A DNA stretch of 64,000 nucleotides. Source: an uncultured bacterium (GTDB lineage Bacteria; Verrucomicrobiota; Kiritimatiellia; RFP12; UBA1067). Under the pieces are notes generated by a model. The model had not been told where the DNA came from and searched no databases. It saw nothing but the letters and a program-made list of their open reading frames with translations. The position numbers and the translations under genes were made by a program. Positions 1,821-31,324 of the stretch are shown here, piece by piece. Every line of letters starts with the position of its first letter. Position 1 is the stretch's first letter. The stretch is taken from contig CACYQU010000006.1 of NCBI GenBank assembly GCA_902776615.1, forward strand, positions 7,757 to 71,756. Reading direction: 5' to 3'.

Positions 1821-1923
1821 GGCGAGGCGTCACCCCTAGCGACATTGCTACGCAATGCTCGCTGCTCTCGGGGGATACCGCAGAGCCGCAAAGGAACAGA
1901 AACGATTTGAAAGGAATGCTGAA

Positions 1924-4900
1924 ATGACAAAGAAACTGATGATGATGGCTTTTGCGGCGGTTGCCGCGGCGTTCGGCGCATGGGCCGAGACGGAAACGGT
2001 CGGCGGCTACACGTGGAGGTACCAGATCAACGGCGACACGGCGAAGATTTTTTACAAAGGTTATTCGTATCCTGCCATCTCGCCCAAGCCTACTGGTGCC
2101 GTGACGATTCCCTCTACGCTCGGCGGCAAGCCCGTTACGAGCATCGGGGATTCTGCGTTCTTCCGTTGCAGCGGGCTTACGAGCGTTACGATACCTGACA
2201 GCGTGACGAGCATCGGGGATTATGCGTTCGAGGGTTGTAGCGGGCTTACGAGCGTGACGATACCAGACGGTGTGACAAGCATCGGATCTGATGCGTTCTA
2301 CGGCTGCAGCGGTCTTACAAGCGTTACGATACCAGACTCGGTGACTAGTATCGGGAATCATGCGTTCTCCTATTGCCGTAGTCTTACGGGCGTGACGATC
2401 GGCAACGGCGTGACGAACATCGGGTATTCTGCATTCTATGGTTGCAGCGGGCTTACGAGCGTGACGATACCTGACAGTGTTACGAGCATCGGGGAGGCTG
2501 CGTTCTACGATTGCAGCGGACTTACGAGCGTGACGATCGGCAACGACGTGACGAGCATCAGGGATTGGGCATTCCGAGGCTGCAGTGGGCTTACAAGCGT
2601 TACGATACCGAATAGTGTGACGAATATCGGGGAATGTGCGTTCTGCAACTGCAGCGGGCTTACGAGCGTGACGATACCCGACAGCGTGACGAGCATCGGG
2701 TCTTCGGCGTTCCCTGGCTGCAGTGGGCTTACGAGCGTGACGATCCCTGACAGCGTTACGAGCATCGGGGAATGTGCGTTCTCTGGTTGCAGCGGGCTGA
2801 CGAGCGTGACGATACCTGACAGCGTGACGCGCATCGGGGATTATGCGTTCTCCGACTGCAGCGGGCTGACGAGCGTGACGATACCGCAATACGTGTGCAC
2901 CAATAGATTGTCATCAGTGTTTTCATCTGCATATCAGTCCATCACCAATGTCGTCATTTCGGATAGCGTGACGAGCATCGGGGATAATTCGTTCTACGGT
3001 TGCAGCGGGCTTACGAGCGTGACGATACCCGACAGCGTGACGAATATCGGGGAATGTGCGTTCTACAACTGCAGCGGGCTTACGAGCGTGACGATACCCG
3101 GCAGCGTGACGAGCATCGGGGCTGTTGCGTTCTGGGACTGCAGCGGTCTTACAAGCGTGACGATAGGCAACGGCGTGACGACCATCGGGGTTCAGGCGTT
3201 CGACGGTTGCAGCGGGCTTACGAGCGTGACGATCCCGGACAGCGTGACGAGCATCGGGTCTTCTGCGTTCACGGGTTGTAGCGATTCGCTTTTCGACACG
3301 ACCACAATACCCGGCGTGGTGTTGGTGGATGGTTGGGCGGTTGGAAACACGGGCTCGCTTTCCGGAGACTTGAATCTGGCTGGTGCTCGCGGCATCGGAG
3401 GCTCTGCGTTCTTGTTGTGCAGCGGTCTTACGAGCGTGATGATCGGCAACGGCGTGACGAGCATAGGGGAAGGGGCGTTCTCCGATTGCTATGGGCTTAC
3501 GAGTGTGACGATTTCCGACAGCGTGACGAGCATCGGGAAAGGGGCGTTCTCCGTTTGCGACGGGCTTAGGAGCGTGCATATAACCGATCTTGCGAAATGG
3601 TGTAACAGTTCGTTTGGCGCATGCTTCTGGAATGCATCATACAGTCTCTATCTTAATGACGAGAAGATTTCGGATTTGATTATCCCCGACAGCGTGACGA
3701 ATATCAGCAATTCTGCGTTCTCTGGTTGCAGTGGGCTTACGAGCGTGACGATGCCAGACAGCGTGACGAGCATCGGGGAACGGGCGTTCTACAACTGCAT
3801 AGGGCTTACTAGTCTGACAATCGGCAACGGCGTGATGAGCATCGGGCGGGGTGCGTTCTCCGGCTGCGGCGGGCTTGCGAGCGTGGCGATCCCGAACAGC
3901 GTGACGAGCGTCGGGGATGGGGCGTTCGATGGTTGCAGTAGGCTGACGAGCGTGACGATACCTGACAGCGTGACGAGCATCGGGTCTGAGGCGTTCTACG
4001 GCTGCAGCGGGCTTACGAGCGTGACGATACCGGACAGCGTGACGAGCATCGGGAATTATGCGTTCCAAGATTGCAGTGGGCTGACGAGTGTGACGATACC
4101 GGACAGTGTGACGAACATCGGGAATTATGCGTTCTACAACTGTACGAATGTGACGGATGTTGCTATTCCGGGGTGGAAATGCAGCATACCATTTGGTGCA
4201 GTGACAAATCTTATTATCAGCGATGGCACTGCGAGTATCCGCGATTCTGCGTTCTTTGGCTGCAGCGGGCTTACGAGCGTGACGATACCCGACAGCGTGA
4301 CGAGCATCGGGGATTATGCGTTCCGCGGCTGCAGCGGGCTGACGAGCGTGACGATTGGCAACGGCGTGACGAGTATCGGGTATGGTGCGTTCGATGGTTG
4401 CAGTAGGCTGACGAGCGTGACGATACCTGACAGCGTGACGAGCATAGGGTATTCTGCGTTCTCCGGTTGCGTGAACGTTATAAGTCTGACTGCGCCATAT
4501 TTTCCGTCAGGCTTGAATAAAAGCCAACCAATGAGCGTGACGATACCTGACGGCGTGACGAGCATCGGGGAAGAGGCGTTCTACGGCTGTAGCGGGCTTA
4601 CGAGCGTGACGATACCCGACAGCGTGACGAGCATCGGGGGATATGCGTTCTGCGATTGCAGTGGGCTGACAAGCGTGACGATCCCGAACAGCGTGACGAG
4701 CATTGGGTTAGAGGCGTTCTACGGCTGCAGCGGGCTGACGAGCGTGACGATACCGCAATATGTTCTTGACAGGCAAATCCATAATGTGTTTTCACCATGC
4801 TCGTCAATTACAAATGTCGCGTATTCTTCGGTCATAACAAATATCGGGGATTATGCGTTCTACGGCTGCAGCGGGCTTACGAGCGTGACGATACCTGACG

Positions 4901-7900
4901 GCGTGACGAGTATCGGGGGTTCTGCGTTTTACGGTTGCAGCGGGCTTAGGAGTGTGCATATTACTGATCTTTCGAAATGGTGCAGCAACTCGTTTGGTGG
5001 ATGCTTCGGGAATGCATACAATCTCTATCTTAATAACGAGAAGATTACGGATTTGATTATTCCTGCCAGCGTGACGAGCATCGGGTCTTCTGCGTTCTCC
5101 GGCTGCAGCGGGCTGACGAGCGTGACGATACCTGACAGCGTTACGAGCATCGGGTCTGGTGCGTTCGAGGGTTGTAGCGCTTCGCTTTATGACACTGCGA
5201 CGATTCCAGGAGTAAGGCTGGTGGATGGTTGGGCGGTTGGGAACACGGGCTCGCTTTCCGGAGACTTGAATCTGACTGGTGCTCGCGGTATTGGGTCTTC
5301 GGCGTTCTCCGGCTGCAGCGGTCTTACGAGCGTGACGATCCCGAACAGCGTGAATAGTATCGGTGCTGAAGCATTCAGTGGTTGCACTGGATTGACAAGT
5401 GTGGAAATACCATCTTCGGTAAGGAGGATTGGAGAGCATGCGTTCTACAATTGCAAGTCAATAACGAGTCTGAAATTGCCTGATGCCGCGTCTGATATAT
5501 CGTTCTCGGCGTTCGAGGGTTGCACGGGACTGTCCGGCGAGGACATTCCAGATCTTGGTGTTCCAGCGGCAAAGGAATGGGGGTTTGTCTCTTACGGCGG
5601 CGAGGCTCTGATTGTCGGAAGGGATATGGAGGAGACTCCGCATCCGGTGTTCCTGCCTGATCCTTGGATTGAAGTCGAGGCTGGTTATGCCTTTATATAT
5701 GCAAATTATTCAAGCGCGATTCCATCTGACACAAGCGGCGCGGTTTCCGTTCCGTCGATGGTCGGCGGGCTTCCCGTCACGACAATCGGAAAGTATGCGT
5801 TCTGCACTTGTAGCAATGTGACTGCGATAACCATTCCCGCAACCGTCAAACACATCGCAGCCGGAGCATTCAACGCTTGTAGAAGACTCGAAAAGATATC
5901 TGTTGCGGCGGGTAACTCTTCGTACAAGACGGTGAACGGACTGCTTCTTACCGCCGACGGAAAGCGCGTTGTGGCTGCTCCGCGCAAGATCGCGTCGGCT
6001 ACGATTCCGGCTGGTGTCGAATACATCGACGATTACGCATTATTCGGCTGTGAAAATATCACGGAAATCTCGATTCCGGAAGGAGTTGTCGGCGTCGGGG
6101 CAAAGGCATTCCTTGGGTGCAGATCGCTCTCGCGCGTATCACTGCCGGCATCCTTTAACGGATTCTTCTGTATGTATCAGTATTACGGGTTTTGGGAGAC
6201 TGAAAACAGCGACTGGGATTACGAAACAGACGAGCCTGAAGAATACAGATGGACATGGATTGGCGATGAATGGTATGAAGAGCTTGAGATGGAGGATTTC
6301 TACTCTTATCATCCATGGCAATGGGGAGAGGTCGTCAGACATACGGGTTACATCGCATCGTTCGGGTGTTGTGAATCATTGCAATCTATCGAAGTGGCGA
6401 CCGGAAACAAGATATATAAATCCGTTGACGGCGTTCTTCTACGCAGAGATGATGACGCGGTTGTGTGCTGTCCTGGCGGGTTGAAGTCTGCAACCATTGC
6501 GCCTTCAACGACAAAGATTGGCGAGTATGCTTTTTACGGGAACATGGCCTTGAAGGAAGTGGTGTTTGGCGGAAATGTAAAGTATGTGGACAAGGAAGCG
6601 TTTTGCGGATGCATATCGTTGACAAATATAGATTTCGGTGTGTGCGTATCGGATAGCCGCATAGTGTTTTACGGGGGTGCTCATTTCGCATGGTGCACAT
6701 CGCTTGAGAGCATCGCTCTGCCGGATCGAATGCTGAACTATCCAGAATCCATGTCAAGCGGAGGGAAGGGATCTGAGAATGAGACATTTGACGATATGCT
6801 ATATGCGGCAATCCCAGATTGGATGCTCGGACATTGCCATAAACTTAGAAACATCATTCTGCCTGATACGATCAAAGGAATTGGCGAATGTGCGTTCGCG
6901 TCATGCTGGGAACTGGAGAGAATTGCCATACCAGCCAGTGTCGAATGGTTGTCCGAAGGCGCATTTCAATGGTGCGAAAGACTGCGGAACGTTGAATTCA
7001 AAGGGAAATCGGCTGAAACAGATCTAGATGTTTTTTTAGAAGAGCGGTTTGGCTTTGATTCTAAGAGCTGGGAATTCGAAATGATTTTCCGGCTAACACC
7101 TTGGTTGTTGTCTTTTACTCCATTTGAGCTTTATGTCGAGAACGGCATTCTTCTCGGATTTCAGGGATGCTGCCCAGAAGAGTTGACGATACCAGACGGA
7201 GTGACGGAGATCGGCGACAGTGCTTTCGATTACGATGAGAATTTGTCAGTCATTGGACTGAAGAGGATTACGCTTCCCGCTGGACTCAAAAGAGTCGGGA
7301 AATGGGCGTTTTTTTGGGCTGGGCTGGAGGAAGTCGTGCTTCCGGAGGGTGTGACGGAACTTGGTGAGGGCGCGTTTCTGTCCTGCACAAACATGACCTC
7401 GCTGTCGCTGCCGCAGTCGTTGTCTGTTTTGAGCCCGTCGGCATTCCGCAACTGCGGTTCGCTCCGCGAAATCGTCATTCCCAAGAACATTGCGGAGTTT
7501 GGCGAGCGGGCGCTTGCGTATTGTGTCGGACTCGAAAAGATCGTATTTAAGGGTAATGCGCCCAAATACGGAGAAAACGCCTTCCTGAAAATCAATCCTA
7601 ATTGCACGGTATATGTCGTGCCCGGTTCAACTGGGTGGGATGTCTCAATTCCAGGAGAATGGAACAGAATGCGAATCGAGTATGCAGCAAACGGCGGAGA
7701 TGAGTCAGGATACGGTGGCGGTGCGACACCGGAAGAGCCGACGCCGGAGCCAGGGCCTGAACCCACGCCAATGCCAACACCGACTCCAACACCGACGCCG
7801 ACACCTGAGCCGACGCCAACTCCGGAACCGACTCCGACACCTGAGCCGACGCATGAGCCGACGCCGGAACCTACTCCGACGCCGGAACCTACTCCAACAC

Positions 7901-8511
7901 CAACACCGACTCCAACACCTGAGCCGACGCCTGAGCCGGTGGTTGTGCCCCAACTGCACGAAGACGCGGTTGTAGAGGGTGCGGCGCCGACGGTGGCGAG
8001 CGAGTATAATGGCTACTTGTACGACGAGAAGAGCGGGGCTGTGAAGGGCACGATTCAGGTCAAGATCGGCAAGCCCGGCAAGAAGGACGGCAAGGCCATG
8101 GTTAAGGATGGCCCGACGGAGATCGATCTTGTCGGCAAGGGCGCGGAGGATTGCAGTGTGATGCTCGGCGCTTACGGAATCATCGGCTACTACGGTGCGT
8201 ACGTCATCGACGGTGCGCGTAACATATTCTCGTCGAAGGACAAGGGTGATCTTGCGGATGCGAAAGACGCTCTCGACAAATGCCTCGGGTCGAGGATGGT
8301 CATTTGGGACGGCGGATCCGTCAGTGTCAGCATTGCGGCGAAGGGCAAGGTCAAGGTAAGCGGAACGCTCGCCAGCGGCGCTAAAGTCTCCGCAACCGCT
8401 GTGCTCCTGGTAGGCGAGGAGTGGAACTGCGTCTCTGTTGCCGCGCCGAAGGCGAATCTCTCGTTCGTGCTGTGGCTTTCGCGCGACGGCAAAACCACTA
8501 TATCTGCCTAA
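1924..8511 (+). CDS. giant secreted leucine-rich-repeat (BspA-like, LRR_5 type) surface protein with Pro/Thr-rich linker
   Basis: Start chosen at [21 protein letters not shown] signal peptide. Dozens of ~23-aa repeats [19 protein letters not shown] follow, then divergent LRR_5-like repeats, a PT-rich linker and a beta-rich C-terminal region. Confidence 0.9.
2150..5430 (+). repeat. intragenic array of ~69-nt (23-aa) LRR units, including a ~1.9-kb segmental duplication
   Basis: GGCTGCAGCGGGCTTACGAGCGTGACGATACC-type units recur throughout. Longer blocks are duplicated: [23 protein letters not shown] at ~3310-3400 and ~5220-5300, and [15 protein letters not shown] at ~3570 and ~4950. Confidence 0.85.
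7729..7950 (+). repeat. low-complexity Pro/Thr/Glu linker coding repeat (PTPEPTPTP...)
   Basis: Translation [69 protein letters not shown]; 6-nt periodic CCGAC(G/T)/CCAAC(A) DNA. Confidence 0.9.
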
Positions 8512-8803
8512 TGGCGTTCCTGTGACGAAGAAGGGGACGAAGTGGACTTTGCCCAAGGTCGGCAGAATCACGATGAAGAAAGGCGTCATCGACGTCTCGA
8601 AGGCGGGCGAGAACCCGTCCGGACTGAAGCTCACGTACAAGTCGTTGGACGGCACATTCAAGGGATTGTTCAAGGTCTATGCCGAGAACAAGGGCAAACT
8701 GAAGGCAACAACCGTCAATGTGACCGGCTTCCTGCTCAATGGCATTGGTTTCGGCACTGCGACAATCAAGAAGGTTGGCTCGGTATCGATTAGAATCGAG
8801 TAG
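8495..8803 (+). other. out-of-frame C-terminal continuation of the LRR protein (frameshift, pseudogene or assembly indel)
   Basis: The +1 frame reads [102 protein letters not shown], which is protein-like and continues the beta-rich domain. It has no own start or RBS. The junction is at the A4 run 8491-8494. Confidence 0.5.
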
Positions 8804-8813
8804 CCGTACTGCA

Positions 8814-8951
8814 GAGGCAATTGCAAAACCACGCGAATTCGGCGGGCTGACCCCAGCCCGCCGCGGCGGCGTGAGGTCACGCACCCCTGCATCCGCTCCG
8901 CGGACAGCCTTCGGCTGGGGGATATGCCCTACCAGGTTTTGCAATTGCCTC
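8814..8951. repeat. 138-bp element bounded by perfect 17-bp inverted repeats (MITE-like or large RNA stem-loop)
   Basis: GAGGCAATTGCAAAACC (8814-8830) and its exact reverse complement GGTTTTGCAATTGCCTC (8935-8951). The interior holds the hairpins GGCGGGCTG-ACCCC-CAGCCCGCC (8841-8863) and CAGCC-TTCG-GCTG. Confidence 0.7.
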
Positions 8952-8999
8952 GTTTGTGTTTGCTTCACCGCCGCACTCGCGGCAGATGAAGATGTTTAT

Positions 9000-9230
9000 G
9001 GTGGCAGGTCTGGCCGCCAGAGGTGGCAGGTCTAGCGTCCAGAGGTGGCAGGTCTAGCCGCTGGAGGTGGCAGGTCTGGCCGCCAGAGGTGGCAGGTCTG
9101 ACGGCTAGAGGTGGCAGGTCTGGCGCGCAGAGGTGGCAGGTCTAGCCCCCAGAGGTGGCAGGTCTGGCCGCCAGAGGTGGCAGGTCTGGCCGCCAAGGGT
9201 GGCAGGTCTAGCGGCCAGAGGTGGCAGGGG
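9000..9230. repeat. tandem array 1: 22-bp unit x 10 plus one partial copy
   Basis: Invariant 12-mer GGTGGCAGGTCT starts at 9000, 9022, 9044, 9066, 9088, 9110, 9132, 9154, 9176 and 9198 (partial at 9220), an exact 22-nt phase. It is separated by degenerate 10-mers (GGCCGCCAGA, AGCGTCCAGA, AGCCGCTGGA, GACGGCTAGA ...). Confidence 0.95.
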
Positions 9231-9427
9231 AAGGCCCTACACCTGGGAGAGCGCATAACTGGGGGCGCGGGCGTCCCGCCCGCGACTAAGGAAGGTTTTA
9301 GATCTTCCATCTGAGCGGGCGAGACGCCCACTCTCCCAGTGATGCGCCCCTCCCAATCCGATGTCGACGCGGCGGCATCGCAATTTGCCCTTAAGGGGGA
9401 CTTCCATTACCCGTAAGGGGTAGTGCA

Positions 9428-9559
9428 CTTCACCCTTAGGGTAAGTTCACTTCACCCTTAGGGTAAATTCGCTTCACCCTTAGGGTAAGTTCACTTCACC
9501 CTTAGGGTGAGTTCGCTTCACCCTTAGGGTGAGTTAAAGAACCCCTTAGGGTAAATTCG
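9428..9559. repeat. tandem array 2: a different 22-bp unit x 5 plus one degenerate copy
   Basis: CTTCACCCTTAGGGT(A/G)A(G/A)TT(C/A)(A/G) starts at 9428, 9450, 9472, 9494 and 9516, with a degenerate copy at 9538. Each unit contains the 11-bp odd-centred palindrome ACCCTTAGGGT. Confidence 0.95.
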
Positions 9560-9631
9560 AGCCCCCCTTGGTCTGCCGTGGAGACTGCCCCGCCTGCATG
9601 TCTCGAACACCACATCCCGTGGCATTTTGGT

Positions 9632-9663
9632 AAAAAAAGCGGGGACTGTCCCCGGTTGTTTTG
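9632..9663. terminator. bidirectional intrinsic terminator inside the gene-free segment
   Basis: A7 tract (9632-9638), stem CGGGGA / TCCCCG (9640-9645 / 9649-9654) with loop CTG, then GTTGTTTTG. Confidence 0.55.
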
Positions 9664-9940
9664 AGCGCAATGACGCATTTTGGCAACAGCGCTATCGTAG
9701 ACGCACTCAACCTAAAAACGGCAGTAGGGGACGAATTTTTTCTCACACCCTTTAGGTGATGTTTTGCTTCAAGTAAATTTGATGCATAGTTAGTTGTATT
9801 CGCAAGATTCCGAGCATTCTCTGCGCTTTCGGACTCTCTGCGTGAGACATTCAACTGACGAATCTAGGTTAAACTGCCTGAATCCCGAAGAAACGATGCA
9901 CTTTCGAAAAAAGGCAGTGACCGCCAGGCGGATACAGCAG

Positions 9941-10125
9941 TATCCGCCAAACGGACACACGTGTATACGCCAAACGGTCACACGTGTATCCGCCAAACGG
10001 ACACACGTGTATCCGCCAAACGGACACACGTGTATCCGCCAAACGGTCACACGTGTATCCGCCAAACGGACACACGTGTATCCGCCAAACGGACACACGT
10101 GTATCCGCCAGGCGGACACAAACAG
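9941..10125. repeat. tandem array 3: 23-bp unit x 7 plus one degenerate copy
   Basis: TATCCGCCAAACGG(A/T)CACACGTG starts at 9941, 9964, 9987, 10010, 10033, 10056, 10079 and 10102. Each junction forms the 8-bp palindrome ACACGTGT. The array is bracketed by CCGCCAGGCGG at 9921-9931 and 10105-10115. Confidence 0.95.
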
Positions 10126-10343
10126 AAAACAACAATAATATAAACATAAACCCGAACAGAAAGGAATCGGGGTCGAGTTTGATTCGAAGAGATCCTGGCT
10201 CTGGAGAGCCGAAGATGCTAGATCAGCATATTGACGCGATGAGCGTCGATGAGCTCACAAAACCTGAGCGGAGGGGGAGCGGAGGGGGACCCCGCCGGGC
10301 CCTTGAAAAACGGGCTTTCGCGGCACCCCGGTGTAATTCATGG

Positions 10344-10373
10344 TTGCAAACGGCATGTGTTTTATGCTATCAT
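10344..10373 (+). promoter_or_regulatory. sigma70-type promoter upstream of the small ORF / NPP gene
   Basis: TTGCAA (10344-10349), 18-nt spacer, TGcTATCAT (-10 at 10368-10373). Confidence 0.45.
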
Positions 10374-10441
10374 ATTCGTAATGCCAAGCGCGGTTGTCGC
10401 GTTGAAGCAGTGTAACAACTAAACAAGAGTAAGGGATAAAA

Positions 10442-10573
10442 ATGAAAGTTTGCAAAGTTGCCATAAGGGGTGGGCGTTTTTGCGTAATTAGCGCAATGGC
10501 GTTCGCTCTTTCCATATTCACCGCTCGTGCAGGGCATGATGATTATTGTAAAGTAACACACAAACACAACTAA
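10442..10573 (+). CDS. possible 43-aa signal-peptide-bearing small ORF (below the ORF-track size cutoff)
   Basis: AAGGGA RBS 6 nt upstream. Translation is MKVCKVAIRGGRFCVISAMAFALSIFTARA-GHDDYCKVTHKHN. Its stop codon overlaps the AAAGGAG RBS of the next gene. Confidence 0.3.
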   Translation: MKVCKVAIRGGRFCVISAMAFALSIFTARAGHDDYCKVTHKHN

Positions 10574-10589
10574 AGGAGAATCGGTTGTA

Positions 10590-20528: not shown

Positions 20529-21950
20529 ATGAAGAAAATGAATGTACAGAGACGCTCTTTCATCGCCGGATTGGCAACATTGGGGATTGCACCGTCCGTT
20601 TTGTCGAACGACGCGCCGGCGCTTGTGCGGCATGATGTTGTTGTTGTCGGCGGAGGACCTGCCGGTGTTTGTGCGGCGATAGCTGCGGCGCGGCATGGCG
20701 CCGATGTTCTAGTTGTGGAGCAAGGCAACTGTCTTGGCGGCATGGCTACCCAGGGCCTTGTCGGACCTTTCATGACCTGTTACGACACAACGGGCGAAGT
20801 GCAGCTCATAAAAGGAATCTTCGATGAAATCGTCCGTCGCATGGTGTCCATCGGCGGTGCGATACATCCGAGCGAAGTCCGAAAGGGAACCTCGTTCGCG
20901 GCATGGCACACTGTGGGGCATGATCATCTGACGCCATTCGAGCCCGAAGCCCTTAAATTCGTTCTCGACGACATATGCGCGGAGTCTGGCGTGAAGGTTC
21001 TCTACCATGCCACATTTACAGCGCCAATGATGGAAGGGAACCGCATCTCCGGCGTGGAGGTTTTCACCAAAGCGGGATTCAAGCGTATTGGCGCTTCGGT
21101 TGTCATCGATGCTACGGGCGATGGCGACGTGGCGTTCCGAGCGGGTGCGCCGTGTGAACTAGGCGATACCGAACGCGCCTGCGCGATGCAGCCAGCTACG
21201 ATGTTTTTCCGCATAGGCAATCTGCCCGAGACCGCAGTGGAGGCTGTGCGCGCAAAATATCCGCAGGACAACCGGGCGTTCATGACATTGCTGAAACAGG
21301 CCAGGGCGGACGGAAGCTGGAGCATTCCCCGTCCGCACATAAACATATACCGTGGAGTGAAGAGCGACGAGTGGTTCGTCAATGTGTCGCGTCTTACGGG
21401 CGTGGACGGCACGGAGCCTGAAAGCCTGTCCAATGGCGAAACGCAGGGGCGCAGGCAGGTGCGCGAAACAATCGCCTTTTTGCGCAAGTATGTGCCTGGC
21501 GCGCAGGATTTGCGCCTGCTGTCCACGGCGTCAACGCTCGGTATTCGCGAGACGCGCCATGTTCAGGGAGAGTATGTGCTCGGGAAGGACGACATACTTG
21601 AGGGGCGGCGACCTTCCGACAGCGTTGTTCTGTGCTCCAACTCGATCGATCTGCACGGCGGTGCCGGCAGATCGGGCACTTTGTATATTGCCGTAAAGAA
21701 CGGCACGTCATACGGCGTGCCATACCGTTCGCTTGTTCCGCAGAAGGTGGAAGGTCTGCTTGTCGCCGGGCGTTGCGTTTCGGCGACATCGGTTGCGGCG
21801 GCCGCAATTCGCGTTGTGCCGCCGTGCATGGCGATGGGGCAGGCCGCCGGAACTGCGGCTGCGATGGCGGTGGCTGGTAGTGTCGCGCCTCGCGGTGTGG
21901 ACGCGGCGGCGCTCGTCGCCACGCTTCGCGCAGACGGAGTTGCGATATGA
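20529..21950 (+). CDS. Tat-signal FAD-dependent oxidoreductase
   Basis: QRRSFIAGLATLG twin-arginine signal; VVVVGGGPAGVCAAIAAARHGADVLVVEQGNCLGGMAT Rossmann motif. Confidence 0.85.
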   Translation: MKKMNVQRRSFIAGLATLGIAPSVLSNDAPALVRHDVVVVGGGPAGVCAAIAAARHGADVLVVEQGNCLGGMATQGLVGPFMTCYDTTGEVQLIKGIFDEIVRRMVSIGGAIHPSEVRKGTSFAAWHTVGHDHLTPFEPEALKFVLDDICAESGVKVLYHATFTAPMMEGNRISGVEVFTKAGFKRIGASVVIDATGDGDVAFRAGAPCELGDTERACAMQPATMFFRIGNLPETAVEAVRAKYPQDNRAFMTLLKQARADGSWSIPRPHINIYRGVKSDEWFVNVSRLTGVDGTEPESLSNGETQGRRQVRETIAFLRKYVPGAQDLRLLSTASTLGIRETRHVQGEYVLGKDDILEGRRPSDSVVLCSNSIDLHGGAGRSGTLYIAVKNGTSYGVPYRSLVPQKVEGLLVAGRCVSATSVAAAAIRVVPPCMAMGQAAGTAAAMAVAGSVAPRGVDAAALVATLRADGVAI

Positions 21951-30451: not shown

Positions 30452-30841
30452 CTAAAGCCGATTCACCTGCTTTTCAGTACCCGTACATAAGACGTTCTCC
30501 TTCGCCGTCTTGACACTGGCGGTGAGGAGCTTGATGAGTTCGGTGCAATCGGCGCAAAGGGAATCAAAGGCAGGCGACGGCTCGACAAGTTCACTGTCGC
30601 GGAGAAGCTCAAGCCAGTATTCGGTCTCGGCAGCTTCCTTGAGCGCGATCTGGAGTTTGGATGCAAAATCTGCCTTGCTTTGCGCATAGCGACTCTCGGC
30701 GATGTTCGCGCCGATTGAGGTTCCTGCCCGCAGCATTTGCTTTGCAATGACGGACTCCTTGCGCTCGCGCAGGTGTTTGTAGAGACGAACGATGCGGAGG
30801 GCAAAGGCCTTTGACTTCGTAAGCAAGATGCTTTCTTTCAT
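30452..30841 (-). CDS. four-helix-bundle protein (23S rRNA intervening-sequence protein / Avd-like family)
   Basis: KSKAFALRIVRLYKHL........AKQMLRAGTSIGANIAES......KADF..KLQIALKEA.ETEYWLELL is the family signature. Confidence 0.85.
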   Translation of the reverse strand: MKESILLTKSKAFALRIVRLYKHLRERKESVIAKQMLRAGTSIGANIAESRYAQSKADFASKLQIALKEAAETEYWLELLRDSELVEPSPAFDSLCADCTELIKLLTASVKTAKENVLCTGTEKQVNRL

Positions 30842-30900
30842 GGTGTGTACTTTTCTGCTTGTCGGTTCAGGTTACAGTTTATAGTGAACAACGAATAGTT

Positions 30901-30975
30901 TCCAAAATAGGGAATAGGTCATTGACGGTCCATTCACCACCTATTCACTATTCACTATCACCTATTCCCTATTTT
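30901..30975 (-). terminator. ssrA terminator hairpin (15-bp perfect stem)
   Basis: AAAATAGGGAATAGG (30904-30918) and CCTATTCCCTATTTT (30961-30975) are exact reverse complements. On the minus strand the stem ends in a U4 run. Confidence 0.5.
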
Positions 30976-31324
30976 GGAGGTGAGGGGAGTCGAACCCCTG
31001 TCCGAAACGGCATCACCCGAGCTTCTACGCGTGTATTGCGCCATTGATCTCGGACGCGGTATGCCGACGCACGGGCTTATCCGCATCCATCCGTTCGATT
31101 CGGCACCCTTAAGCGAGCGAGCGGAGCCCCCCTAAGCGTGGCCTGCTAGATGATGCCTAGGCGCTCAGCAGACATCGGCGCTTCGACACGGCGGCCAAAT
31201 TTAGGCGGCCATTTTGTAGCTGTTGTTCGCAGTTACTTGGTGTTCCCGTTTTTTAACGTGGCCAACGAGAATCCACGACGCGCTACCCGACCTCAACTCG
31301 TCCCGTCGAAACCGGATCACCCCC
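30975..31324 (-). ncRNA. ssrA: tmRNA (transfer-messenger RNA)
   Basis: The minus strand starts GGGGGTGATCCGGTTTCGACGGG and ends GGTTCGACTCCCCTCACCTCC-A. The acceptor has G1-C72 pairing and a G3:U70 wobble. Tag ORF GCG AAC AAC AGC TAC AAA ATG GCC GCC TAA encodes ANNSYKMAA. CCA is not encoded. Confidence 0.9.

Follow-up and report, generated by a model that had tools for sequence, protein, structure and literature searches.

What remains in a stretch of bacterial chromosome where no intact gene survives and three different tandem arrays stand side by side? The question was raised by positions 8804-10589 (the segment) of a 64-kb stretch of contig CACYQU010000006.1 (the window, whose coordinates are used throughout), from a Kiritimatiellia bacterium of the gut or rumen. 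The window is chromosomal, as it carries a release factor, a transfer-messenger RNA (tmRNA), and tRNAs, and the segment lies between an LRR gene on one side and the NPP operon on the other. A reading made from the letters of the window alone (the sequence-only reading) had treated the arrays, numbered 1 to 3 from left to right, as one architecture and had found no standard feature class for it. We consider it probable that the segment is a patchwork of mobile-element debris, in which the right half is a decayed lambda-like replication module and the left half a satellite. A class would then exist, namely an iteron origin within an initiator gene, present here as a decayed and relocated remnant. 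Related contigs and proteins are given L- and P-numbers, respectively.

A probable initiator gene with an internal array, and its module

Tandem Repeats Finder reported two arrays with a period of 22 bp, array 1 (9000-9228, 10.4 copies) and array 2 (9418-9559), and one with a period of 23 bp, array 3 (9940-10120, 7.9 copies). The core of array 1, GGTGGCAGGTCT, occurred 10 times exactly in the window relative to 0.17 expected from dinucleotide shuffles at ≤1 mismatch; the same shuffles gave 0.04 for the array-2 core, found 5 times, and 0.00 for the array-3 core, found 7 times. Outside the arrays, the only further match in the 64-kb window was a 1-mismatch copy of the array-1 core at 21746, and none was linked to an array. 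The arrays, a hairpin element, a terminator-like hairpin, and an A/T patch were all present where the sequence-only reading had put them, far beyond chance. Its view that the open reading frames (ORFs) called over the arrays are generated by the repeats was also borne out across the arrays, array 3 being open in most of the six frames. Comparison with L001, an independent contig that is 99.8% identical, showed that arrays 1 and 2 were the same in both, and that array 3 was shorter in L001 by exactly three units. With flanks 99.8% identical and 9 units in the window versus 6 in L001, array 3 displayed the copy-number polymorphism between close strains that defines a minisatellite or variable-number tandem repeat (VNTR).

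When translations of the arrays were searched against a collection of 5.8 billion proteins, ten ORFs were returned, and in two of them (P0108 and P0113) an N-terminus matching the Pfam HTH_36 winged helix read straight into array 3. The gene concerned, which we call geneB, encodes 289 aa in L012 (P0113) and about 270-290 aa in intact copies. Its product matched HTH_36 at E 7e-6. It also matched 14 PHROG families at E ≤ 0.02, the best at 8e-10, all of them in DNA metabolism, with the annotations replication initiation, O-like, DnaD-like loader, and primosomal. Homologues were 31-38% identical over 97% of the length, and clustering at 50% identity gave the family at least 149 clusters at E ≤ 1e-10. 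In the structure predicted by AlphaFold2, residues 1-100 form a winged helix, residues 103-204 are disordered (pLDDT about 33), and the C-terminal domain is helical and modelled with confidence. Because homologues cover 97% of the protein, the family holds 149 clusters, and AlphaFold2 predicted defined domains, we concluded that the full-length protein is real. The C-terminal domain alone gave no PHROG match, the whole protein gave no Pfam match to Rep_3, TrfA, or RepA_N, and a sequence profile search of the PDB yielded only weak matches to the CodY winged helix. We infer from the PHROG matches and the domain layout that geneB encodes a lambda-O-like replication initiator.

The disordered stretch is the part of the protein encoded by array 3 and the A/T-rich tract that follows it. 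Array 3 of the window was homologous to an array of 5 units inside intact geneB, located between the winged helix and the helical C-terminal domain. These repeats are putative origin iterons, and the A/T-rich tract is a candidate DNA-unwinding element. In L018 and L019, where geneB is about 34% identical, exactly five 23-bp dyad units occupied the same position, and the A/T-rich tracts (58-67% A+T) opened with a conserved ACAGAAAA. The unit sequences differed: CCGCC-ARR-CGG in the window and L012, GTCGCC-CAC-GGCGAC in L018, and GTAGCC-CAC-GACTAC in L019. Three lineages, each with a unit sequence of its own, thus agreed in position, period, and count, which is the co-variation looked for between iterons and initiators. 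Retention of period, position, and dyad while the sequence diverges along with the protein is as expected of initiator-iteron pairs, and would be explained by binding of the geneB product to its own array and by origin activity there.

The number of units inside the gene also followed a rule. Of 45 full-length homologues, 18 had their best internal self-offset in the central region of the protein at 23 residues (3 x 23 nt) and two had it at 22 residues, and three homologues (P0121 and P0122/P0124) lacked exactly 23 residues. Units are therefore added to or removed from intact genes in threes, which preserves the reading frame. Compared with the 5 units of intact genes, array 3 had 9 units in the window and 6 in L001; L014, whose geneB protein is truncated at 172 aa, had 7 and a 1-nt insertion. 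Unit number is unconstrained in such broken copies. The homologue in L033 had no internal repeats and carried 21-22-bp dyad arrays immediately 3′ of the gene.

At the intact loci (L012, L013, and L014), the lepA stop codon was followed by array 2, with 6-9 units, and then by an extended −10 promoter (TTTTTGGTATAAT), geneA, and geneB. Array 2 of the window, with 8 units of which two leading and one trailing are degenerate, was homologous to this upstream array, which has 6 units in L012 and 9 in L014; in L012 it lies ~60-170 bp upstream of the −10 element (TGGTATAAT). Searches of Pfam, PHROG, and NCBIfam with the 220-aa product of geneA gave nothing at E ≤ 1, tblastn against the phage and plasmid collections found no match, and the protein has no ATPase signature of the Walker or actin type. 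L018 and L019 contained homologues of both geneA and geneB (about 34-41% identity), and L018 had a 22-bp dyad array of its own (CCCC-GTT-GGGG) immediately upstream of geneA. Genes downstream of geneB were toxin-antitoxin genes or small ORFs without a family.

We propose that in intact copies initiator dimers would occupy the five iterons, which lie about two turns of the helix from one another, and that the resulting nucleoprotein complex would open the adjacent A/T-rich tract. The C-terminal domain of the geneB product might then recruit the host helicase-loading machinery. Array 2 could serve as an operator or as a second binding array that controls the module promoter, possibly by way of the geneA product.

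Among known systems, the lambdoid origin inside the O gene comes closest. In lambdoid phages (oriLambda; Stx phages P27 and 933W) an iteron origin lies within the initiator gene, and iteron number varies between relatives, altering protein length (PMC7466680). Four hallmarks of that system were found in the intact module: a winged-helix initiator, central dyad iterons (as predicted here), a flanking A/T tract, and co-variation. The order of parts in geneB is likewise that of O, with an N-terminal DNA-binding and a putative C-terminal interaction domain, and with dyad repeats and then an AT-rich region in mid-gene, and PHROG families named "replication initiation O-like" are among its matches. 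A fifth hallmark, an adjacent helicase loader (P-like or DnaC-like), was absent, and neither geneA nor the geneB C-terminal domain has a family match; the partner is the upstream geneA instead of a downstream P-like loader. The module also differs from lambda in that a BLAST-level search of phage records gave geneB no detectable similarity to lambda O, in the strict 23-nt period of its five units, which, not being a multiple of 3, makes intact genes change by three units at once, in its second 22-bp dyad array upstream of the promoter, and in its Kiritimatiellia host, where no phage structural genes were seen.

Other replicons resemble the module in part. Iteron theta plasmids (R6K gamma ori/pi, RK2 oriV/TrfA, and pPS10 RepA) have roughly 22-bp direct repeats, an A/T-rich unwinding element, and a winged-helix initiator, and repeats near the rep promoter can autoregulate (PMC5043065, PMC10797057). 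The module shares with them the ~22-bp spacing beside an A/T-rich tract and a winged-helix protein; unlike them, it lacks a Rep_3, TrfA, or RepA_N signature and, in 8804-10589, a DnaA box, its putative iterons are inside the gene, and it has no relative among 72,556 plasmids. In SaPI/PICI origins, iterons flank an AT-rich stretch just 3′ of rep, and the SaPI Rep is a helicase-type initiator. Similar to these, the module occurs in chromosomal islands near toxin-antitoxin, Abi, and anti-repressor-type genes, and the L033 arrays are just 3′ of the gene; unlike SaPI, geneB has no ATPase domain, and neither integrase nor packaging genes were seen. Plasmid centromeres (R1 parC, pB171 parC1/parC2, and TP228 parH) are direct repeats upstream of a par operon. 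Array 2 is likewise phased and just upstream of a two-gene operon, with a second array on the 3′ side of the operon, whereas geneA has neither a Walker or actin-type ATPase signature nor a family match, and no par gene is present in the window flanks.

In the phage, plasmid, and IMG/VR collections that were searched, the module family, with at least 149 geneB clusters, is undescribed; it belongs to a known kind of origin. What has been revealed is, on this evidence, an uncharacterised family of replication modules, and the strict 23-nt period of predicted iterons within an ORF would make it a clear natural case of joint constraint at the DNA and protein levels. Since, to our knowledge, Kiritimatiellia have no genetic tools, an intact module (e.g. 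L012 4591-6462) is a candidate minimal replicon for vectors.

Three observations concern the surroundings of intact copies. In L014 a GH92/GH125 gene (1159 aa) was inserted between lepA and the module, and the last ~24 nt of lepA were duplicated at the end of the inserted gene (2635-2658 and 6119-6142), giving the look of a cassette-type insertion. The neighbours of the L018 module were a Schlafen/RecG-like gene, bAvd, and AbiE. Directly after geneB, L018 also had a third array (4817-4928, 21 bp x 5.3 copies, AAATTGACCGCCTCGTTTCCG); ~100 bp downstream of it is a TGGTATAAT promoter for small ORFs and an ORF6N anti-repressor-like gene.

The damaged copy in the window and the dispersed repeats

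The features of the segment are listed in Table 1.

Table 1. Features of the segment between the LRR gene and the NPP operon, in window coordinates
Feature	Position	Strand	Description
Palindromic element H	8814-8951	.	138 nt; 17-nt perfect terminal inverted repeats (8814-8830/8935-8951), structured interior
Left flank of array 1	8952-8999	+	Conserved; common to L023, L027, L029, L032
Array 1	9000-9228	+	10 x 22-bp units plus a partial one; invariant 12-nt core GGTGGCAGGTCT, variable 7-nt spacer
Palindromic element X	9244-9355	.	Long hairpin of ~110 nt, z −6.9; absent from the list of the sequence-only reading
Array 2	9384-9559	+	8 phase-exact 22-bp units, dyad core ACCCTTAGGGT; 5 perfect (9428-9537)
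Promoter-proximal module sequence	9560-9631	+	L012 homology ends at ...GGCATTTTGGTA; −10 (TGGTATAAT in L012) lost
Hairpin cassette T	9632-9662	.	AAAAAAGCGGGGACTGTCCCCGGTTGTTTT; terminator-like on both strands; replaces −10, geneA, and geneB codons 1-49
geneB remnant, codons 50-65	9664-9711	+	SAMTHFGNSAIVDALN; part of the winged-helix recognition-helix region
Replacement segment	9712-9868	.	Unrelated 157 bp in place of geneB codons 66-97; common to L016, L017
geneB remnant, codons 98-113	9869-9916	+	KLPESRRNDALSKKGS; leads into array 3
Array 3	9917-10123	+	9 x 23-bp units in register; dyad core CCGCC-A(A/G)(A/G)-CGG
A/T-rich tract	10124-10168	+	45 nt, 71% A+T vs about 55-57% local G+C; identical in L012, L014, L015, L001
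geneB central (linker) remnant	10124-10268	+	P0113 homology ends at residue 199 (...DELTKP); C-terminal domain absent
G+C-rich hairpin piece	10271-10331	.	Travels with T in L016, L017; right edge of inserted material
Sigma-70-like NPP operon promoter	10344-10373	+	TTGCAA, 18-nt spacer, TATCAT, with TG; host sequence, outside the debris
Remnant of ~725-aa gene	10442-10556	+	Signal-peptide-like start and last 11 codons (PLVQGMMIIVK*, 10521-10556) kept

Judged from its alignment to the intact loci, window 9355-10331 is a copy of the two-gene module that has been damaged twice. Homology to L012 ran from 9355 to 9631 and stopped inside the −10 element, where cassette T begins; within T, the hairpin at 9640-9654 fits the terminator consensus on both strands. 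The geneB codons that survive are 50-65 and 98-199, and no further sequence of geneA or geneB was found elsewhere in the 64-kb window. The description of the segment as gene-free was therefore right in that no intact gene survives and wrong in that it contains pseudogene fragments of the initiator (9664-9711 and 9869-10268) and a fragment of the gene that precedes NPP (10442-10556). In the same way, the remark that no rep gene is adjacent proved true only superficially, as a 16-codon initiator fragment (9664-9711) and the central region remain and the rest has been deleted. Synteny with L008 begins at window 10330.

The junction between T and the 5′-truncated geneB was not peculiar to the window. 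It recurred in L015, where the copy sits in a defence island next to RelBE, and in L016/L017, with a GntR operon on one side and a gene for a metallophosphoesterase on the other, and was thus common to three unrelated gene contexts. The L016 copy kept the last ~27 nt of lepA even though it does not adjoin lepA. Because L016 retains this end of lepA and the junction is common to all of these contexts, we concluded that the truncated copies derive from a lepA-adjacent site and were moved. Close strains also differed at the NPP locus itself. In L004-L007, where NPP is 77-93% identical, a ~725-aa gene abuts NPP and the arrays are absent; in L008/L009, where NPP is 96% identical, array 1 alone lies upstream of NPP, inverted relative to the window and directly after a 75-aa ORF, and arrays 2 and 3 are absent. 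With such differences among L004-L009, the arrays lack positional conservation even among close strains, and the search for their cores in relatives, which the sequence-only reading had recommended, likewise found them dispersed at other loci and not conserved in position. We propose that the window arrays are orphaned cis-sites, most likely inert, in which copy number would drift by slippage; the window copy is broken, and its own biological weight is low.

The cassette AAAAAAGCGGGGAC(A/T)GTCCCCGGTTGTTTT recurred at junctions of rearranged segments and between cassette-like genes. Its sites were window 9632-9662; L012 6479-6493 and 6553-6567; L015 9159-9184, 9237-9263, and 9964-9990; and L016 8162-8192. 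Cassette T may act both as a terminator and as a hot spot of recombination.

Array 1 had a different distribution. In a metagenome scan it was found in at least nine JGI contigs with 3-7 exact cores each (L021, L025, and L030, chance matches of two cores, were left out of the count), and it was also found in several ENA contigs. Its neighbours varied from contig to contig (GH28/GntR, ribH, acyl-ACP thioesterase, LysR, or an AAA ATPase), and its size across loci was 3-10 units. It was usually accompanied by a left flank of the window type (8952-8999), and on the right side by X or by the stop codon of the 75-aa ORF. When 71 units from 13 loci were pooled, positions 1-12 were nearly invariant and positions 13-19 variable; a constant core with a variable spacer suggests a protein-binding array. 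When IMG/VR was scanned for two exact units of each of the three arrays, 0 matches were found.

The palindromes were dispersed as well. Element H, which folds at z = −7.5 relative to shuffles, was present in pieces in L015, L029, and L004/L005; X accompanied array 1 in L027, L031, and L032 and flanked the replication module in L012 and L015. Arrays 1-3, H, X, and T occurred in differing orders and orientations among contigs, and their adjacency in the window is consequently an accident of accumulation. On these grounds array 1 is best read as an independent, dispersed, intergenic satellite unrelated to arrays 2 and 3. The grouping of the three arrays as one architecture did not survive this comparison, since their combinations and orientations vary in other contigs. 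The iteron-like character assigned to them stood for array 3, homologous to an array with an A/T tract inside a phage-type initiator gene, and array 2 corresponds to the dyad array upstream of the promoter of that module. As short, dispersed, intergenic, and copy-variable elements, array 1, H, X, and T are similar to VNTRs and to REP/MITE-like palindromes; unlike a neutral minisatellite, array 1 holds its 12-nt core constant while the spacer varies. An apparently unclassifiable non-coding segment thus becomes annotatable, with array 3 as the probable internal origin of a pseudogenised initiator, array 2 as the promoter-proximal array of its module, and array 1, H, X, and T as dispersed repeat families of gut Kiritimatiellia.

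Two side observations concern array 1. The 75-aa ORF (MKLTKTQIKEK...GIVEVA*) ended 3 bp before array 1 in five contigs (L023 262-489, L008, L009, L027, and L029), and its further neighbours differed among the five. It had no Pfam match, no tblastn match in the phage and plasmid collections, and weak PHROG matches to families of unknown function. In a scan of GTDB species genomes for array 1, a Nocardioides genome was the sole match: Nocardioides sp. SYSU DS0651 carried two 22-bp tandem arrays of ~6 copies each (L010 5488-5629 and L011 966-1099) with the core GAGGTGGCAGGT(C/T)T and the period of array 1 in the window, each in a gap between ordinary convergent genes. The match may be a coincidence or may reflect a shared binding motif; the GAGGTGGCAGGTCT core at a 22-bp period in an actinobacterium could mark a cross-phylum protein-binding satellite.

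Other explanations of the arrays

Several results weigh against the origin of the right half from a lambda-like replication module. A tblastn search of 50,697 phage and 72,556 plasmid records found no relative of geneB, and the geneB alignment against IMG/VR yielded none. Its Pfam match, HTH_36, is a generic winged helix, and Foldseek against the PDB returned mostly transcription factors (MarR and CodY), with plasmid RepA_N initiators among them and all matches at E > 0.03. No helicase, loader, integrase, or capsid gene was seen adjacent to the module, the contigs being short. The copy numbers of the arrays come from short-read assemblies and may be imprecise. Finally, one would not expect a dead and purely inert remnant to turn up in at least three contexts, and an intact geneB could lie elsewhere in the genome (again, the contigs are short), so that the orphan sites could be bound in trans.

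The structural matches would fit a geneB product that is a transcription regulator, with all of the arrays being operators of nearby promoters. The positions of two arrays fit as well: array 2 of L012 is ~60-170 bp upstream of the TGGTATAAT −10 element, and the third array of L018 is ~100 bp upstream of another TGGTATAAT. We nevertheless regard this explanation as unlikely. All 14 of the named PHROG matches are replication proteins, and an array inside its own coding sequence together with a conserved A-rich tract is the layout of a lambdoid origin and of no known operator. Furthermore, the 23-nt period and the count of five units are kept while the unit sequences diverge.

A second explanation accepts the replication module as the source and gives the orphan arrays a function in trans: they would be a helper-dependent mini-origin, or they would act as a decoy and titrate away the initiator of incoming siblings (incompatibility or exclusion), and for this they would have been retained and expanded. 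The truncated unit occurs with one identical junction in three unrelated contexts, array 3 has grown to 9 units with near-perfect cores, and the coding parts are less well preserved than the putative iterons and the A/T tract, all of which speaks for this explanation. There is a precedent for action in trans, in that a cloned oop-oriLambda fragment inhibits rep-lambda phages, for which iterons ITN3-4 and oop transcription are required (PMC3349717). Homogeneous units, however, are equally predicted by recent slippage; the difference in copy number between L001 and the window at 99.8% identity suggests neutral instability; intact geneB is absent from the 64-kb window; and the surrounding H, X, T, and array 1 look like general repeat debris. 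We hold such a role to be improbable. Slightly more doubtful still is the most elaborate form of the idea, in which orphan origin arrays would have been spread over Kiritimatiellia chromosomes by hairpin-cassette rearrangement and kept and expanded from 5 to 9 units, where they would titrate or handcuff sibling initiators as a chromosomal, incompatibility-based exclusion device.

Iteron-like arrays beside an A/T-rich patch might also be taken as a functional origin, terminus, or centromere of the host. This is very improbable. Cumulative GC skew, the check that the sequence-only reading had proposed, rose steadily across the segment with no inflection and no sign of an origin or terminus; no DnaA box (TTATCCACA, ≤1 mismatch) was present in 8804-10589, and no intact dnaA, par, or rep gene was found near the segment in the window flanks. 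Moreover, the arrays are absent from the locus in L004-L007, array 1 is alone and inverted in L008/L009, and the same sequences occur at other loci.

Assembly artefact, to which we assign next to no probability, would be favoured by the fact that L002, L003, L008, L009, L017, L022, and L028 end at or near arrays and that assemblers struggle with repeats, but independent ENA, Logan, and JGI assemblies carry the same arrays with the same flanks, so the arrays are not the product of one assembly, and intact ORFs cross array 3 in frame.

Some candidates were dropped outright. A structured RNA or protein-sponge RNA was rejected because Rfam gave no match in the segment at gathering score and only sub-threshold hairpin noise at E ≤ 1. 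CRISPR-like, attC/integron-cassette, and ParA/ParB readings were rejected as unit sizes, motifs, or partner genes were missing.

Surroundings of the segment

The gene of ~725 aa that abuts NPP in L004-L007 was reduced in the window to a chimeric ORF of 43 codons, composed of its signal-peptide-like start and an out-of-frame C-terminal remnant. L008/L009 had another deletion of this gene, and the NPP promoter and leader (window 10332-10504) were duplicated in L008 upstream of a 1055-aa Laminin_G_3-like gene; the L008 stretches concerned are 391-600 and 3063-3254.

On the other side of the segment, the giant BspA-type LRR gene (1855-8511) was frameshifted near ~8501, and its last ~100 codons (8438-8803) were out of frame. 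A stretch of 124 bp present in L001 (143-267) was absent from the window, with TAT microhomology at the junction. The frameshift reflects either a genuine deletion that turned the gene into a pseudogene or a mistake of assembly.

Over the whole window, 9-mers resembling the DnaA box (TTATCCACA, ≤1 mismatch) occurred 14 times relative to 5.8 expected, a number that 0 of 100 shuffles reached, and they were scattered. ARAGORN reported a second, permuted tmRNA* overlapping the genuine tmRNA (30518-31067 and 30975-31324); the second is probably a false positive, and the genuine one was confirmed by Rfam at 158.6 bits.

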